Shown one piece after another: positions 7,278 through 28,418 of a DNA stretch of 33,108 nt. The notes beneath the pieces are model-generated. The model was not told the DNA's origin. It searched no databases and worked only from the letters and a program-made list of their open reading frames with translations. Both the position numbers and the translations under genes were made by a program. The stretch lies in the IMG/VR virus record IMGVR_UViG_3300032227_000522, positions 1 through 33,108 of that record; one strand, 5' to 3'. Numbering within the stretch: position 1 is the first letter of the stretch; each line of letters begins with the position of its first letter. The DNA comes from a virus (Duplodnaviria; Caudoviricetes).

Positions 7278-8207
7278 CTATGTGATGTTTACCCACGCGC
7301 TGGTGGCGTTGTTGTATCGTTTTGCTGTTGTAAGACTAACCCACTGCCCACTTGCTTGGTCGTAACGTTTTGCCGTGTTGATTGCACCCCACGTGGATCC
7401 GCTACGGCGGTAACCATAAGAGGTCGGCGTAGTTGAGATGACGTTCGAACGAATCGACGCCGGTTGCGAACCGTGAGCGTCCGACACAGCATTCAAAGCG
7501 CCCACCCGGAAGTAATAGAGCGTCCCAGAGTTCAGACCAGTAACCGTCAGGGTAGTAGCCGTCGATCCAGTATCGGCAATCGAACCGGCAAGAGTGGCAA
7601 AGTTCGAAACGGTAGACCACTCCACTCGGTAACCGTTGATTGCCAAACCACCAGTTGTACCGGGCGTCCAAGCCAAATCAACCGCACCGAAGGTCACGCT
7701 GTCCACCGCCGAGGTGAGCGTCGGCGCTCCCGGGATTGTATTGAAGTAAATCGTGCCGCGAAGTTTGCTGTTCCACGTGGAGTTGGTCGTCCAGTCCGAT
7801 TTCTCGAGCCACGTAGTTCCTGTGCCACCTCGGTAGAAACCGACCCCGGTGGATCCGTCATCGCAGTGCTGGCCGTAGTAATAAGTTGTGTCAGCGACTA
7901 GTGCTTTGGTCAGACCCTTGTTTGTCTCGTATCGAGCAGAAACGTCATCCGCTGTTCCGGCTGGATTGAACTGGCCCGAATAAACGTCTCCAGCACCATT
8001 CAGGTTGTTGACCATCAGGATTCGTTGTGCGCCACCCGAAGCCCAGACCGTGACCGACTCGGTCAAAAGAGGCTGGAAACCCACGTCAGGTGAAACGTAG
8101 GACGCGTTCGAACCGATTGAAAAGTCTGTCATGGCTCGCCAACCAGTCCATGCAAAGAACGGCTTAGAAGTACCCGAAGCCCCGGTGGAAACGCTATCGA
8201 AAGCCAT
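7278..8207 (-). CDS. Minor tail / tail-fibre protein with fibronectin type III domain
   Basis: PGAPTL...LAWTP...GYRVEWS...TVTGLNSGTLYYFRVGALN. Confidence 0.8.
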   Translation of the reverse strand: MAFDSVSTGASGTSKPFFAWTGWRAMTDFSIGSNASYVSPDVGFQPLLTESVTVWASGGAQRILMVNNLNGAGDVYSGQFNPAGTADDVSARYETNKGLTKALVADTTYYYGQHCDDGSTGVGFYRGGTGTTWLEKSDWTTNSTWNSKLRGTIYFNTIPGAPTLTSAVDSVTFGAVDLAWTPGTTGGLAINGYRVEWSTVSNFATLAGSIADTGSTATTLTVTGLNSGTLYYFRVGALNAVSDAHGSQPASIRSNVISTTPTSYGYRRSGSTWGAINTAKRYDQASGQWVSLTTAKRYNNATSAWVNIT

Positions 8208-13616: not shown

Positions 13617-15403
13617 CCTGCCACCACCTTTGCCCGGCGCATAGCGCTCAAGAGTTCCTGCTCACCGTCAAGAGTTGCGTTCGGGGCCGCGTTGTAAATG
13701 ATAGTTTGACCGCCAGCACGGTCGAGAGGGGTAACCGTTGCTCCCCGGGGAAGCGTAAGGATTTCTGCACCCTTTTCGCCGACCATAACGGATCCGCCGC
13801 TAGTGAGCGTTCCACCCTTTGCCAACTTCGGAATCCTAGGAATATTAAAACCGATTGTTTGCCCACCGAATTCCGGCACCCAGTCTGGTACGTCAATCTT
13901 TATGGAGTTGAGACCATTGATGACTTTGTTAATCATGTCGATTATGAAGTTGACCGGCGGTTTGATGAAATCGATGATTGACTCGAATGCTTTACCGACA
14001 ATCTCGCCCAGTCCACTAAAGACGGCTACGGCGGTGTCTGCTACAACGTGGAAAGCCTTAACGATGAAGTCAACGACTGGTTTGATTACGTTTAGCCAGA
14101 GAACTTCAAACGCGCCACCGATTGCTTTGAGCGCTGGTTTGATTGCGTTATCCCAGAGCCACTCGGCCGCCATCGCGAGTAGCGCGAAGCCGATCAACCA
14201 CGCGGTGATGATTGGGTTGATGATGTAGTCCCACAGGAACTTGAAAGCGGCCCCGATGAAATCGAAGATGGGTTTGAGGACGGTTTCCCAAAGCCAAGTC
14301 CACGCCATAGAAATAGCGTCGACCATTATTTGCCACGTGTCTTGGAAGAAGGTGGTCTCGTTCGCGAGGTAAATAATCACACCGATGAGCGCACCGATCG
14401 CGAGCGATATCATTCCAATCGGGCTGGCAATCCACGCCGCCGTCAGAGCCAACTGGGCCGTTACCGCACCCCAGAGAACCGGCATCAAAGCGATAAAGGC
14501 AGGAATGAGAGTCACAAGAATAACCGTGCCTATTCCAGCCAGCACCGGGATAATAATTTGAGGGTTATCGACCATCCATTGGAAAACCGGAATCACGGTC
14601 GTATTCATAAACGAAGCCAGCCCGGTAACCGCCGGGAGGAACGCTTGCCCGATTGACGCGGACAGGTTGGTGAACTGCGCCGCCATGATTCGTTGCTGGT
14701 TAGCCAGCCCACCCGAGGTTCGTTCGAAGTCACCAGCTGCAGCACCGGTCTGTTCATAGATAAGCGCCTGAGCTGCCAGAATCTTCTGTTGCGGAGTTAG
14801 CGCTTCCTTAGTGGTCATAATCAAGCCAAGGGAGAGTGCCTTATTTCGCAAAGACCAATCGTCCAGCAGAATTCCGTATTTACGGATCGGTTCAGCCTCA
14901 CCGCGAAGCGCCGCACCAATTGCGACGATTGCTTCTTCCGGCGAAGTGTTATTGAACGACGCAAGGTCGGACGCGGTAGTTGCCAGCCCGGTAGCGAAGC
15001 CAGCGAGGTCGTCTCCAGAAAGCCCGGCGGCGTTTCCAAAGATACCGAACGTTTTAGCGGCGTTGAGTGCTTCGAGTTGGGATTGTCCTAAAGCGGTGGA
15101 TGCGCCTTTTGCGAACGAATCAATCTTTCCAAACGAAGTCCCGAAGATTTCCCCGACGGCGCTCCCGGCTTCAGCAAGGTCAGAAGCGGCCCCAATCGAG
15201 TCCTTGACGTAAGAACCAATCGCGGCGATACCGATAGCGGCGGCAATTGGGCCAGCGAACTTCTTGAGCGAACCCAGCATTCCTGCGCCGAGGGCTTCAC
15301 CGCTGATCGCGCCAGCGCCACCCATTTCCGAACTAATAGCCGCGGCAATTCCGGTCGTGGTTGGAATAATCTGGACATACGCCTCCGCAATGCGTTCAGC
15401 CAT
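13610..15403 (-). CDS. Tape measure protein (~597 aa, short)
   Basis: IAEAYVQIIP N-terminus, DLASFNN, Trp-spaced repeats, IPKLAKGG...VGEKGAE. Confidence 0.92.
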   Translation of the reverse strand: MAERIAEAYVQIIPTTTGIAAAISSEMGGAGAISGEALGAGMLGSLKKFAGPIAAAIGIAAIGSYVKDSIGAASDLAEAGSAVGEIFGTSFGKIDSFAKGASTALGQSQLEALNAAKTFGIFGNAAGLSGDDLAGFATGLATTASDLASFNNTSPEEAIVAIGAALRGEAEPIRKYGILLDDWSLRNKALSLGLIMTTKEALTPQQKILAAQALIYEQTGAAAGDFERTSGGLANQQRIMAAQFTNLSASIGQAFLPAVTGLASFMNTTVIPVFQWMVDNPQIIIPVLAGIGTVILVTLIPAFIALMPVLWGAVTAQLALTAAWIASPIGMISLAIGALIGVIIYLANETTFFQDTWQIMVDAISMAWTWLWETVLKPIFDFIGAAFKFLWDYIINPIITAWLIGFALLAMAAEWLWDNAIKPALKAIGGAFEVLWLNVIKPVVDFIVKAFHVVADTAVAVFSGLGEIVGKAFESIIDFIKPPVNFIIDMINKVINGLNSIKIDVPDWVPEFGGQTIGFNIPRIPKLAKGGTLTSGGSVMVGEKGAEILTLPRGATVTPLDRAGGQTIIYNAAPNATLDGEQELLSAMRRAKVVAGW

Positions 15404-15788
15404 GACCACCACCTCTCGCCGGGTTCATCCTCTTTAGAATACTGTCTATCTCGTCCCGAGTGCGAACGCGACTCGGAGCAATCCTGCTGGTTACATTCTC
15501 CCACGGACGCTCCATAGGTTTGCCCTTCTTTGAGTTCAAACGAAGCGTCAAGTCGTAAATGTTTGCCAGCACCATCCACTCGTGAGAGGCAGGGTATCGC
15601 CAGCCACCAAGGGAAGCGGCGAGCAACGTGGACGGATCCACCGTGAGCGCCTCTACGAGGTGCGTAGCCTCACGCCACGAGATAGAACGACCCACCTCGC
15701 TAAAACCGACCGCATAACGCCTTCTGAAGTCTGAATACAGGGCCGTGGGATGGTCTTGCTCCAGTTCCAGAAGGCGATCTATTCCGGG
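15396..15788 (-). CDS. Tail assembly chaperone, frameshift extension (gpT-like)
   Basis: Lies in the -1 frame relative to the upstream chaperone, between it and the tape measure gene. Confidence 0.8.
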   Translation of the reverse strand, partial: PGIDRLLELEQDHPTALYSDFRRRYAVGFSEVGRSISWREATHLVEALTVDPSTLLAASLGGWRYPASHEWMVLANIYDLTLRLNSKKGKPMERPWENVTSRIAPSRVRTRDEIDSILKRMNPARGGGHG

Positions 15789-16015
15789 AGTGAAGCGCCT
15801 TGAGTCCATTCCTTAATTACGTCCGAGAACTCCGAGACGCTCATAGCGTCAAGCGCTTCGAGCGCCGGTGACTTCTCGCCAAGCGTCTCTTCCAGAATCA
15901 GGAACACACGGTCTTCCTCGTCCTTAGCTGCTTTACGCGAGCGACGGATTACACCTGCAGGGATATCTTTGAGAGCCGGGATTTCGAATTCTTTATTGTC
16001 GTGCTTGAATTTCAT
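15779..16015 (-). CDS. Tail assembly chaperone (gpG-like)
   Basis: 78 aa, follows the major tail gene; IPAGVIRR, ALDAMSVSEFSDVIKEW. Confidence 0.85.
   Translation of the reverse strand: MKFKHDNKEFEIPALKDIPAGVIRRSRKAAKDEEDRVFLILEETLGEKSPALEALDAMSVSEFSDVIKEWTQGASLPE
15782..15788 (-). other. Putative -1 ribosomal frameshift site C CCG GAA
   Basis: CTC CCG GAA TAG at the end of the chaperone gene; a -1 slip gives CCC GGA ATA GAT (PGID...). Confidence 0.65.
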
Positions 16016-20367: not shown

Positions 20368-21757
20368 CCGGAGCGTTTGCTATTTCGACGGCCAGCGCGT
20401 TGTTCTGCTGGACGGCGCTCGCGGCCTGTGCGAGTTGTCCGATGATGTTCGTAGCCTGTGCCTCTTTGATTTCTTGGCGCAGGACGTACCGGTCGGCTTC
20501 TGAAAGCCCGATGCGCTGAAGAGTGATGTCTGAAGTAGCCGGGAGGACTCCAGCGGCGATCAACTTGGTGACCTCGTCGGCGGCGGCAGCCCGGGTTGGG
20601 GTCGAAGCGTCACGCCATACTGGGCGCACCGATTCAAAACCCTCTGGAAGTACGGAGGTGTTATTAGCGACCAAATAAGAGAGCCGGGCTACCTCAGTCC
20701 ATGCGTTGCCAAATTGACGTTGCCGGCGTTCAGCGCGTTTGACGAGGCGCGACTCCATTTGTCGGATTGCGTCAGCGGACGAAGGGTTGTCTGTCTGAAA
20801 TCCGAGATAGGCGGTCGGGATTGCGGTTTCCGCAGCGAGTTGAGTAGCCAGCGCCCGGATATAACTCATGTAAGGCTCGGGCGAGTTAGCCGAGAACTGA
20901 CCAACCTGCGGCATCTGAGAGTCTTCTTCGTTGTACGGTACGCCGAGCAAACGGCCCTGAATGACCGACCAAGAGTTGAGTGGGTTTCCGTCCTCGTCTT
21001 GAAACAAGTCTTCGCGAGCGCCGAGAACGTAGCGCTGGGGTGCGGAGTAGAATTCCCGGGAGATTTCTGCACCGAGGAATGTACGCATTGCGGAGTCGAT
21101 GAGGTATTTGACTGCCGGCGTGATTTCCGATCGTCCTTTTGAAGAACCAGCGGACGGCTGGTTAACCATTTGCGCTACTAGAACGCGACCGAGGCGGTGT
21201 TCGTCCCGGTCAACCTCTACCCAGTCGCCGTTGAAGTAGGCAACGGTAATGTTTGCGTTCTCGGTGTAAATCACTCCGCCGATTGTGTTGCCTCGGTCAT
21301 CGCGATCAACGAGCATTGCGGTTTCAACTCGTCGACGGCGTAAATCCCAAATTGAGGTCATGCGCGATGGCGGTTCGACTGTAACAAGTGGTGAGGGTTC
21401 TCCCTCCGTACCCGAACCCACGACCAAGTAGCCCACGCCGTAAACGAGTGCGTCGTTGTGGACGAGGGATCCGTCCGAGTCGAGGTTGTTAGCGCGGTAA
21501 ACGCTGTTTAGACCGTACTCATCGCCGTTGTACCAGCCCTCGAACTCCAAGCGTTCCTCGAGAACCTGCACGGCGGTACGCGCCCACCCGACAACCGTTT
21601 CAACGCCGGTTAGCTGCGGTGGGATTGAGATGCGTAAATCTTTGAGACGATTCTTGCCTTCGTAGTAAGCCCTCTTTTCCGAGTTCTTAAATTCGTATTC
21701 ATCGAGTCGATTCGAAAGAGCCGCGGCGATTGCGGATTCTTCTGAAGAGAGAGTCAT
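20354..21757 (-). CDS. Portal protein (SPP1 gp6-like)
   Basis: YYEG, GRSEIT, REFYSAPQR, NPSSADAI, WRDASTPT. Confidence 0.93.
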   Translation of the reverse strand: MTLSSEESAIAAALSNRLDEYEFKNSEKRAYYEGKNRLKDLRISIPPQLTGVETVVGWARTAVQVLEERLEFEGWYNGDEYGLNSVYRANNLDSDGSLVHNDALVYGVGYLVVGSGTEGEPSPLVTVEPPSRMTSIWDLRRRRVETAMLVDRDDRGNTIGGVIYTENANITVAYFNGDWVEVDRDEHRLGRVLVAQMVNQPSAGSSKGRSEITPAVKYLIDSAMRTFLGAEISREFYSAPQRYVLGAREDLFQDEDGNPLNSWSVIQGRLLGVPYNEEDSQMPQVGQFSANSPEPYMSYIRALATQLAAETAIPTAYLGFQTDNPSSADAIRQMESRLVKRAERRQRQFGNAWTEVARLSYLVANNTSVLPEGFESVRPVWRDASTPTRAAAADEVTKLIAAGVLPATSDITLQRIGLSEADRYVLRQEIKEAQATNIIGQLAQAASAVQQNNALAVEIANAPDVIQ

Positions 21758-25642: not shown

Positions 25643-26788
25643 TTAGCCCATCAGTTCCCGGGGTGTTTCCCAAGGCGCGTGGTGACGGCCCATATGACCG
25701 TAAGCCGCCAGCGATTGGTAGCCGTGGAAGGTACGAAGCCCGAGGTCACGGATAATCCCTTCCGGGGTTAGGTCGAACGCCAGCGAAATGGCGTCGGCGA
25801 TAAGTTCATCGTCCCCAGTGCCAAAGGAGTCCACGTAGACCGCCACAGGCTTTGCCACACCGATCGCGTAGGCAATCTGCACCTCGCACCGGTTAGCCAT
25901 TCCAGCAGCTACGACCGTCTTCGCAATCCACCGCGCCGCGTAAGCGCCAGAACGGTCGACCTTCGACGGATCTTTCCCCGAGAACGCTCCACCGCCGTGT
26001 CGGGCCATGCCGCCATAGGTGTCGACAATAATCTTTCGCCCGGTAAGCCCGGCATCGCCTTGTGGGCCGCCAATCACAAAGCGCCCGGTCGGGTTGATGA
26101 GAACTTTCACGTTCGTCCAGTCGAGTTCGTAGGCATCCCCGAATTCCTCGAGAATAGGCTCGATGACGAATTCGCGCACATCGCCGCGGACGGTTTCGAT
26201 GTCTACATCGGCACGGTGCTGGGTTGATACCACCACGGTATCAATCGTGACCGGTAGGGATTCGAGATAGCCGACGGTGACCTGCGTTTTGCCGTCCGGG
26301 AGCAAGTAATCAAGGTTTCCCTCTTTGCGTTCGTGGGTAAGGCGCTGGGCGAGGCTGTGCGCGATCGTTATTGGCATCGGCATAAGCTCTTCGGTTTCAT
26401 CGGTGGCGTACCCGAACATCATGCCTTGGTCGCCGGCCCCAATTGTTGATGGGTCGTCTGAGGCGTTGTCTACCCCTAGCGCGATGTCGGCGGACTGCTT
26501 TCCAATAGCCACGTTGATGCCGCAGGTTTCTGCGTCGAAACCGTACTCCGATGAGGTGTAGCCGATTCTGGCGATTGTTTTGCGGACGATTGCTGGCACG
26601 TCAATGACGGCGCTGGTTCGAAGTTCCCCGAAGACGTGGACTTGCCCGGTAGTGAGCGAGGTTTCGACGGCTACTCGGGAGTTCGGATCCTGTTCAAGTA
26701 CCGCGTCCAGAATGGCGTCGCTGATTTGATCAGCCATCTTGTCCGGGTGGCCCTCGGTGACCGATTCGGATGTGAATAAGCGAATCAT
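25643..26788 (-). CDS. metK: S-adenosylmethionine synthetase
   Basis: [57 protein letters not shown]; full length at 381 aa. Confidence 0.97.
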
Positions 26789-26799
26789 GGTGTTCCTTC

Positions 26800-28014
26800 C
26801 TACGATTCAGCGAGGATGAAGTTTGTGTCCTCGCCGGTTGATTCGAGTTTAGGCGTAATGCCTGTTAGTTGCTGGTATCGCCGACAAATGACGTCAACGT
26901 ACTTTGGGTCGACCTCGATAGTACGGCAGGAGCGACCTAGGGTTTCGCAAGCGATGAGGGTAGACCCCGAACCGCCAAAGCCGTCAAATACGATGTCGTT
27001 CTGGTTGCTTGAATTCAGGATTGAGCGCTGCAATAGGTCGATGGGCTTCATGGTCGGGTGGTCTGTGCTTTTCGAAGGTCGATCGTATTCGAAAATCGTG
27101 TCTTGCTTGCGGTCGGGTACGGCTTGGTGCGCGGCCCCGGGAGACCAACCGTAGAAGATTGCCTCGTGCCGGTAGTGGTAGTCCGATCGACCCATCACCA
27201 GCGAGTTCTTGACCCAGATAAGGGTTTGTCGCCAAATGCCCAGTTCTGTAAGTGGGATGCAGAAGGCTTGGAAGGCAGGGCCAGACGGTGCGTAAACGTA
27301 CCAGCAACCGCCCGGGCGCGTGTAAGAGTTGGTCAGCGAGAAAGCGTCTCGTAGGAAGCCCTCGAGCATTGCGGTGTCCAAGTCATCGTTTTCGATTGTC
27401 AGCGCGTCTTTGGTCTTGCCCACGTAAGCGACTCCGTAAGGCGGATCCGTTAGGACTAGGTCAATGCGTTCTTCCCCGAGCAGTTTCTCGTAAGCGCCGT
27501 CCTCTGTGGAACTACCGCAGAAGACCTTGTGACGGCCCAGAATCCAAACATCGCCGGGCTTGCTGATTGGGTCTTTAGGTGGCGGAGGTACATCGTCCAC
27601 TTCGTCCCCGGTAGCCGTTTCTAAATCGGTACTGCTGTAATCTTCCCCGAATTCGAGAATGTCGACATCGAAGTCGTGAAGGCGTAGTTCTTCGAGTTGC
27701 CGGTTTAGTACGTCTTCGTCCCACTCGGCGAGTTCAGCGGTGCGGTTGTCGGCGAGGGCGTAAGCCTTCAGCATCGTCTCGTCCCATTCCGCTGGGGCTA
27801 CGACCGCGTCGACCGTCTTCCAGCCGAGTTGAGTAGCAGCTAGAATCGTGCCGTTCCCAGCGAGTACCGTACCGTCCGCCGCTATCACAATCGGTTTACG
27901 TTGCCCGAACTTGTCGAGGCTGGCCGTAATTGCTTTCAGGTTTCGCTCGGAGTGCTTCCGGGCGTTGTTCGGATCCAGAATCAGCGAGCTGATTTCTTTG
28001 TTTTCAATATCCAT
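26800..28014 (-). CDS. ParB-like N-terminal domain fused to N6-adenine/N4-cytosine DNA methyltransferase (beta class)
   Basis: DPNNARKH...FGQRKPIV...ALADNR (ParB/Srx fold); [26 protein letters not shown]. Confidence 0.92.
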
Positions 28015-28015
28015 T

Positions 28016-28138
28016 TCAGCCTTCCATGTGGCATTCGCACCTGCAAATGTCCACGCTTGTGGTTTCTATCTTTGACCGGTACTCCCCGGGGCAATCGGTG
28101 CAGTGTCGCTTACCGAGACACCAGCCAAGTACCTGCAT
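28016..28138 (-). CDS. Small Cys/His-rich protein (40 aa)
   Basis: MQVLGWCLGKRHCTDCP...CRCECH; begins just after the tmRNA-like RNA. Confidence 0.55.
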   Translation of the reverse strand: MQVLGWCLGKRHCTDCPGEYRSKIETTSVDICRCECHMEG

Positions 28139-28145
28139 GAAGTCG

Positions 28146-28225
28146 TGGACGTGTGGGGAGTCGAACCCCAGTCCGATCGTCGTTCCCTCTCGGGTCTTAC
28201 GCCGTCGAGTAACCGTTACACGCCC
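28146..28225 (-). ncRNA. Miniature tmRNA-like RNA (tRNA-like domain only, Ala identity, no tag reading frame)
   Basis: GGGCGTG-TAACGGTTACTCGA-CGGCGT-AAGA-CCC-GAGA-GGG-AACG-ACGATCG-GAC-TGGGG-TTCGACT-CCCCA-CACGTCC-A: 7-bp acceptor stem with G3:U70 and A73, stemless D-loop ending TCGA, GAC linker, canonical T arm. Confidence 0.85.
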
Positions 28226-28232
28226 GTCCACT

Positions 28233-28418
28233 TCAGTCTACAGACCGCAGGTGACGCGCTGGGTGATCCGTTTGCGCCTTTTCAGTTTGCGTTTTGCGGT
28301 TCGCAATTGCTAAACCGCTCCCGACTACCGCCAGCGTGACAATAAAGAAGATGGCGAGCAGTATGACCAGCGTCACAAGGACACCAGCCATAACGCTCGC
28401 CAATTCCCAAATCCACAT
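28233..28418 (-). CDS. Small membrane protein (61 aa)
   Basis: Long hydrophobic N-terminus; TAATG overlap with the SSB stop. Confidence 0.65.
   Translation of the reverse strand: MWIWELASVMAGVLVTLVILLAIFFIVTLAVVGSGLAIANRKTQTEKAQTDHPARHLRSVD

Follow-up and report, generated by a model that had tools for sequence, protein, structure and literature searches.

A stand-alone tRNA-like domain of tmRNA within an open, closely spaced reading frame of a siphovirus-type genome

The window, by which we mean the whole stretch of DNA analysed, corresponds to one whole IMG/VR record; it is 33,108 bases long and has direct repeats at its termini. CheckV estimates its completeness at 51%; relatives with terminal repeats that are rated 100% measure 30.7–35.2 kb. 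The gene content is of the siphovirus type. The major capsid protein matches mostly actinophages and the relatives come from freshwater runs, which together point to a host that is probably actinobacterial. Searches of the genome for tRNA genes, SmpB, a tyrosine integrase (PF00589) and a serine recombinase (PF07508) gave 0 matches.

The locus of interest is a tightly tiled set of genes on the minus strand. An ssb-like gene, so named by its appearance as no family match was found, overlaps by 1 nt the start of a 61-aa ORF (28233–28418, minus strand). This ORF has a hydrophobic N-terminal half and is called in public collections, where it falls in a cluster of 3. Its stop codon sits 1 nt before the GTG start of an open frame of 71 codons (28016–28231, minus strand), whose own stop in turn lies 1 nt before the start of a gene for a ParB-domain DNA methyltransferase (26800–28014, minus strand; phrog_498, E 4e-130; phrog_620; PF01555). 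Directly after the methyltransferase there is a complete S-adenosylmethionine synthetase gene with all three Pfam domains (25643–26788, minus strand), and two further methyltransferases are encoded at 870–2115.

Inside the 71-codon frame, and on the same strand, lies an RNA element that extends from 28225 to 28146 and measures 80 nt when counted to the discriminator base. The 5′ strand of its 7-bp acceptor stem (GGGCGUG/CACGUCC) comprises G1–G7 (28219–28225), including the G of a G3·U70 pair; the 3′ strand, part of the match to the Rfam tmRNA model RF00023, occupies 28146–28153 together with the discriminator A at 28146. The D-loop (28205–28218) is 14 nt long, has no stem and ends in UCGA. It is followed by the P2 helix and its cap (28174–28204). 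P2 consists of 6 bp with one bulged A, formed by pairing of 28204–28199 with 28180–28174, and the cap, which stands where the whole mRNA-like domain would be, consists of 18 nt: AAGA and AACG, as an A-rich internal loop, on either side of CCC-GAGA-GGG, a GNRA-type hairpin of 3 bp (28194–28185). A GAC connector (28173–28171) and a T arm of 5 bp with a 7-nt loop (28170–28154) fill positions 28154–28173. The DNA 3′ of the RNA reads CGA; the 3′ end is thus ACGA and CCA is not encoded. Each of these parts, from the acceptor to the terminal ACGA, lies where the initial annotation had placed it.

RF00023 covers both ends of the RNA with a score of 47.7 bits (E 4.7e-16), only 0.7 bits above the cut-off of 47, and 25 nt of the window RNA replace 318 positions of the model, which include all of the pseudoknots and the tag frame. 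The tRNA model RF00005 gave 0 matches at E 0.1, and a D stem and an anticodon arm are both missing. ARAGORN reported no tmRNA in the genome and no match to the RNA. The RF00023 match is the only tmRNA match in the whole genome, no second copy of at least 14 nt was found elsewhere in it, and the search for a separate coding piece of a two-piece tmRNA gave nothing beyond this one match. These results support the reading of the initial annotation that the RNA is a stand-alone tRNA-like domain (TLD) of tmRNA in the standard gene order.

The folding energy of the single sequence contributes little. Shuffled sequences fold as well (z −0.46; 56 of 200 shuffles were equally stable), the drawn fold lies 1.4 kcal/mol above the minimum free energy, and mean pair probabilities are 1.0 for the acceptor, 0.92 for the cap and 0.72 for the T arm but only 0.30 for P2. 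P2 is weak by energy but is supported by compensatory change in relatives. Contigs of the runs X2–X4, from two studies, replace G24·U50 by U24–A50 and so alter both sides of the helix; X4 additionally changes U27–A46 to U·G, and the remaining listed changes of X2–X4 are all within loops. These contigs and X13, from a third study, are known solely from difference tables and 30-letter ends, which were read by hand. None of the 13 sequencing runs listed is an RNA run, which has no bearing on expression. The relative with the same RNA site, G057, has a G·A mismatch in place of the G24·U50 pair. The third cap pair is C–G in the window, A–U in G057 and U–A in locus L022, with a GNRA loop each time. 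The D-loop is 2 nt shorter both in G057 and in the contigs of runs X2–X4.

To place this copy among others, we scanned IMG/VR with a sequence pattern. The 15 of 64 parts covered gave at least 119 loci. Of these, 67 represent complete genes with a TLD only, which are 75–95 nt long and comprise 53 distinct sequences; the other 52 are not TLD-only and mostly resemble the 3′ ends of longer genes. Scaled from an estimate of 550 stretches, IMG/VR would hold roughly 300 TLD-only loci, a lower bound because the pattern misses both the RNA of mycobacteriophage DS6A and most of the window phage's own clade. In 67 of the 68 pattern hits with a 7-bp acceptor the third pair is G3·U70, which the pattern had left free. 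A model-free count on 52 sequences, made outward from the fixed C–G base of P2, found P2 pairs 1–6 paired in 100, 98, 90, 92, 87 and 81% of cases, against 39–48% expected across sequences. The two free T-stem pairs were paired in 52 of 52, and all four Watson–Crick forms were seen. In a model-fitted alignment of 61 sequences, which is biased towards structure and for which acceptor pairing served as a selection criterion, 97.5% of cells were paired as against 39–53% for slid partners, and 16 of 23 pairs vary on both sides (two 95-nt members are excluded from alignments A1 and A3). Such dense compensatory change indicates selection on the RNA fold.

The cap is the most variable part of the family. 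Among the 61 members, 32 have a 3-bp hairpin with a CNNG loop, 6 a GNRA loop, 9 another 4-nt loop and 14 another shape; the commonest single form, CCG-CACG-CGG, is found in 21. Eleven of the 61 genes include the CCA, and ARAGORN called none (0/61). Nine sequences other than that of the window served to build a family model, on which the window RNA scores 51.1 bits, where members range from 48 to 103, which makes the window copy one of the weakest members by model score.

The carriers are phages and prophage-like regions. A stricter pattern applied to 185,579 GTDB genomes gave 10 loci, 8 of them in Actinomycetota by record title and 8 beside phage genes (four or fewer ORFs were tested per locus). 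Five of these 10 loci were sampled for a full ssrA gene, and all five bacterial genomes have one. One Pseudonocardia genome (G001; loci L123 and L131) has, in addition to the full ssrA, a pair of TLD-only copies that differ from each other and lie on separate contigs, both with phage genes. Copies at L127 (4667–6622) and L128 (6002–7092) lie within tRNA arrays in prophage-like regions of Streptomyces and Cellulosimicrobium, the former region with 19 tRNA matches. The viral carrier records contained neither full-length tmRNA (0/49) nor SmpB (0/50; 8 records at least 90% complete); these checks took in 49 of the 54 listed loci and excluded five contigs of 4–5 kb. As the carriers have no SmpB, the partner protein must be that of the host. 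tRNA genes are present in 20 of the 54 carrier records, in seven of them as arrays of at least 15, and the other 34 have none.

A BLASTN search of the RNA against cultured phages matched 55 records, none of which reached 80% coverage. The cultured Streptomyces phages LuckySocke (101 bits; OR725497.1, 17977–18057; locus L264) and BRock (89 bits; NC_048650.1; locus L265) carry unannotated TLD-only copies among their tRNA genes, and BLAST hits of the same kind were seen in the phages GiJojo, pSt2308 and Alone3 (PP725410.1, PV588686.1 and OR725492.1). The family is thus widespread and covarying, is missed by ARAGORN and stands unannotated in cultured phages whose laboratory hosts are harmless.

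The novelty implied by the initial annotation did not hold, as RNAs of this kind were described in 2009, reportedly in the primary paper of Mao et al. on the DS6A TLD-only RNA, and the DS6A RNA falls in the same family. We located it at JN698994 28478–28560 (tmID 11587; Phage__Mycobacterium.9), and it scores 59.7 bits on family model R1, which was built from neither DS6A nor the window. By this sequence comparison the window RNA can be classed as a member of the DS6A family. Both are phage genes in the standard order with G3·U70, A73, a stemless D-loop, and a P2 whose cap combines an A-rich loop with a hairpin of 3 bp; the DS6A RNA, like the window RNA, is 83 nt including its last three bases and does not encode CCA. 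The two RNAs are nevertheless only 56% identical. DS6A has the common CCG-CACG-CGG cap whereas the window RNA has the rarer GNRA type, and the D-loop of the window RNA is longer and its P2 shorter and bulged. The DS6A copy stands between genes, and its genome encodes an integrase; the window copy is enclosed by an open, coupled frame, and no integrase is encoded beside it or elsewhere in the genome.

In the literature, 'Mycobacterium phage DS6A (TLD only)' is listed and described as 'little more than the TLD' (PMC4131195, Hudson, Lau and Williams 2014; PMC11915505), and it is the one phage example given in the accessible text of both papers. A DS6A-like molecule, chargeable or not, is stated to inhibit tmRNA strongly, perhaps by titration of SmpB (PMC4131195); the inhibition is repeated in the 2025 database paper, which adds CDS-less plastid genes (PMC11915505), and according to these two citing papers it was observed for the host tmRNA in E. 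coli. The supplement of PMC11915505 has no 'Phage' or 'DS6A' entry, and the underlying tmRNA database may list further phage copies. No published family beyond DS6A was found in a literature search whose coverage leaves out most subscription journals. The TLD-only kind of phage tmRNA was thus known before; the size of the family, the copies in cultured phages and the in-frame nesting described below do not appear in the searchable papers.

Other known systems differ more. Standard one-piece tmRNA (ssrA, RF00023) has the same acceptor stem, D-loop, P2 base, GAC and T arm, but its pseudoknots and tag frame are absent from the window RNA; full-length tmRNAs, including phage ones such as that of mycobacteriophage Kumao, are 367–411 nt long and encode tag peptides. 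CDS-less tmRNAs of mitochondria and plastids, with plastid genes of about 65 bp in Mallomonadaceae, occur with SmpB (PMC11915505). They too have no tag frame, but each is the only tmRNA of its organelle and has a targeted SmpB, whereas the window RNA belongs to a virus and would work in a host whose own ssrA is intact. A two-piece (permuted) tmRNA differs in that the window RNA has the standard order, a P2 closed on itself and no separate coding piece.

We compared the locus in 50 of 80 terminase relatives, with terminase identities of 62–97%. Nine of the 50 have family-model matches, among them three of the six near-complete ones, and none has a full-length tmRNA (0/50). Eight of the nine copies are at a different site, before HNH or small terminase genes; those compared have RNAs 57–66% identical to that of the window (terminases 66–74% identical). 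The ninth, in G057 (terminase 93% identical), is at the same site and 87% identical, with flanks that are less conserved than the RNA (small ORFs 72–75%; ssb-like gene 82%); a separate comparison gave 69% identity for the 61-aa ORF. At loci L022 and L102 the RNA is 88% identical to that of the window although the terminase is just 30% identical, which points to horizontal exchange. In the X13 contig all 86 of 86 bases are unchanged, although the sequence on both sides has diverged. X13 was considered as a case of the RNA in a foreign context and rejected, since the two genes that flank the RNA are the ones that carry on in the letters at the contig's ends; it is a relative rather than a transfer. 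Two small phages (L243 and L244, in G014 and G015) have a terminase of 30% and an RNA of 88% identity, and their M23 endolysin domain is 48–52% identical to that of the window, which suggests that their hosts may be related to that of the window phage. Origin of the RNA by deletion between direct repeats of a full tmRNA was also considered and found no support: only repeats of 5–8 nt were found, differing in each of six genes.

The initial annotation had identified the RNA correctly and had overlooked the open, translationally coupled frame around it. The 71-codon frame passes through the whole RNA and the same frame is open in G057 (73% identical). After the RNA it encodes a Cys/His-rich body of 40 aa, counted from an ATG at 28138 (28016–28138, minus strand), which belongs to a family of phage proteins of 38–42 aa and, from its motif, probably binds metal. 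Comparison of the last 42 codons with G057 gave 7, 5 and 19 changes at codon positions 1, 2 and 3, similar to the 9, 3 and 19 changes in the upstream ORF. A full HMM search of 1.84 billion proteins gave five matches, including proteins of 38 and 42 aa that share the Cys/His motif; the named homologues are P0014, P0017 and P0015. Searches with the 71-aa frame by word index, by exact look-up and in the ESM Atlas gave blank or weak matches, so that the family surfaced only in the full HMM search, and a collection of called genes held neither the 40-aa nor the 71-aa form. On the strength of the third-position bias and of the homologues with the Cys/His motif, the part of the frame that follows the RNA can be taken as a real gene.

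Seven other viral contigs carry the Cys-rich gene without such an RNA within 1.5 kb. In all seven (about four independent contexts) the gene starts between −4 and +1 nt from the upstream stop. In the lineage of the window the start that is coupled in this way is the in-frame one before the RNA, at −6 in the window (GTG) and X13 (ATG) and at −5 in G057 (GTG) and X2–X4 (TTG). The −5 starts coincide with the D-loop that is 2 nt shorter, and the reading frame is thereby preserved; this shift across the variants is a single evolutionary event. In four of four variants of the lineage the start is conserved and the frame stays open across the RNA, against a chance level of 12 in 51 unrelated members that have a start within 9 nt and an open frame. 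L022 and L102, which do not carry the Cys-rich gene, lack a start at −6, and a stop interrupts that frame. The simplest history for these arrangements is that a small Cys-rich gene with a coupled start codon received the RNA as an in-frame insertion just after that codon, and this is what seems to have happened.

Whether ribosomes use this frame is a more finely balanced matter. In favour are the coupled position of the start before the RNA and the case of G057, which has no start codon between the RNA and the conserved protein body. On the other hand, the window ATG at 28138 lies just after the RNA, at the usual start position of the protein family, and X13 and X2–X4 likewise have an ATG directly after the RNA. 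We give an even chance to translation running through the RNA, as the first 31 codons of the Cys-rich protein, on uncut transcripts. In-frame nesting would be a further instance of a sequence that is at once a structured RNA and a coding region. The nearest likeness is with tRNA genes nested in protein genes, where a tRNA-shaped RNA is read in frame within coding sequence; here the nested RNA is a fragment of tmRNA and homologues of the host gene exist without it. Our literature search, with most subscription journals outside its coverage, found no report of such nesting for a tmRNA fragment.

The RNA might also be made separately. A putative −10 element, TAGACT (28235–28240, minus strand), ends 9 nt before G1 and doubles as the last codons of the upstream 61-aa ORF; a promoter role is suggested by its sequence. 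It is present in all four variants (window, G057, X13 and X2–X4). Across the family, TANNNT ends at most 9 nt from G1 in 13 of 49 members, compared with 2–8 per other 10-nt bin. A scan for sigma-70 promoters and terminators listed nothing near the RNA on its strand, TAGACT included. The conservation of TAGACT and the excess of TANNNT make a short RNA-only transcript possible alongside that of the operon.

G3·U70 is the determinant for alanyl-tRNA synthetase (AlaRS), and a function as a competitor of tmRNA can be proposed by analogy with DS6A. Host RNase P and 3′ nucleases would cut the RNA from the operon transcript, or a nearby promoter would make it; the CCA-adding enzyme would complete its 3′ end and AlaRS would charge it through G3·U70. 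The charged RNA would then bind host SmpB and EF-Tu, leave less SmpB for tmRNA and enter stalled ribosomes but provide no tag, with the outcome that fewer phage proteins would be tagged and destroyed. SmpB contacts the D-loop and the A of the connector, and a complex of truncated tmRNA, SmpB and EF-Tu binds the ribosome (both PMC8363625). Titration of SmpB by the window RNA would agree with the published behaviour of DS6A. That the RNA is excised, alanylated by host enzymes and competes with tmRNA for SmpB and stalled ribosomes, so lowering tagging, is the account that we favour, with a somewhat better than even chance of being right. The low model score and weak P2 of the window copy speak against it, as does the finding that just three of the six near-complete terminase relatives have a copy.

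Titration reportedly needs no charging, and yet G3·U70 is kept in nearly every family member. Ribosome entry by the family RNAs is therefore likely, judging from this conservation, and opens the possibility of rescue rather than blocking: on a stalled ribosome the nascent chain would pass to the charged RNA with SmpB, and release of the complex would follow, by drop-off and Pth, by ArfB-type hydrolysis or after several rounds that each add alanine. The phage would thus regain ribosomes while the protein is not degraded. We regard such rescue without a tag as possible but clearly less probable than competition. The retention of A73 along with G3·U70 (67 of 68) suits it, as do the tRNA genes and arrays of many carriers and the persistence of CDS-less organellar tmRNAs beside SmpB. 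In vitro, peptide can be transferred to an RNA that consists of the TLD alone (PMC3895274, citing Shimizu and Ueda 2006), but the sole functional report in the accessible text of PMC4131195 and PMC11915505 is of inhibition. Among the 25 larger carriers, Pth is found in none, and an RF-1-domain protein of 137–151 aa is present in two (G017, 20740–20928; G026, 70308–70496), both with tRNA arrays, and missing in 23, including the window genome; these counts have no control set of non-carriers beside them. We take the two RF-1-domain proteins to be ArfB-like by their size. To our knowledge, no release route after translocation is known for an RNA of this type. The question raised is whether phages shut off or redirect host ribosome rescue, and the cultured carriers make it directly testable.

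The nesting suggests a refinement of competition in which the two uses of the sequence exclude each other, with translating ribosomes unfolding the RNA, which would fold and be excised only when translation falters. If this were true, an anti-tagging RNA would be released exactly when ribosomes stall, a translation-gated switch made from a tmRNA fragment. We consider it unlikely.

The RNA may, with low probability, serve instead as a decoy that absorbs defence nucleases which cleave tRNA or tmRNA, or as a stand-in whose alanine-accepting function survives cleavage of anticodon loops and of the mRNA-like domain. It has neither an anticodon loop nor an mRNA-like domain, several carriers have copies within tRNA arrays, and its distribution among relatives is patchy; but an RNA without the usual cleavage sites would presumably be poor bait, the window genome and 34 of the 54 carrier records have no tRNA genes, and the conserved parts are the SmpB-type D-loop and connector. 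It is just as improbable that the RNA is a nearly neutral module, mobile among actinophages and tolerated because it is excised from transcripts or read in frame. The differing sites within the clade would fit such a module, as would the RNA identity of L022 and L102 set against the lower RNA identities found where terminases are far more alike. No mobility gene or flanking repeat was found at the RNA in the genome, however, the compensatory change implies selection on the fold, and X13 retains every RNA base between diverging flanks.

That the RNA is a relic (a degenerate tRNA, what is left of an attP site or of a decayed ssrA gene, or one half of a tmRNA in two pieces) is very improbable: ssrA is a common integration site (PMC11915505) and the Rfam score barely passes its cut-off, but both ends are present and paired in the standard order, no integrase or recombinase adjoins it or was found in the genome, as the initial annotation had argued against an attP copy, the single tmRNA match has no second copy and no tRNA-model or ARAGORN counterpart, and membership of a covarying family already largely refutes decay.

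Several further RNAs and one further locus were noted in passing. Longer variants of 95–101 nt with an extended cap occur at L061 (582–679), L078 (582–679) and L242 (G100, 7464–7564); G100 is a member of the window phage's own clade. L047 has the sequence of L009 minus two bases of the acceptor 3′ strand, through decay or an assembly error. The common cap core CGCACG is also found near the 3′ end of three of six full-length actinobacterial or phage tmRNAs (L136, L137 and L002), a hint at the origin of the cap. In the window itself, two overlapping ORFs lie ahead of the tape measure gene (15396–16015, minus strand), the downstream one matching a tail assembly chaperone. The Microbacterium phages Dismas and Quenya encode an unannotated 92-nt RNA with an alanine acceptor, a T arm and a diverged middle (34–36 bits), which precedes tRNA-Gln and HNH; a Salinibacter phage has a similar weak match to the family model, and the RNAs of this diverged type lie at L262 (1139–1230), L263 (1139–1230) and L266 (1137–1232).
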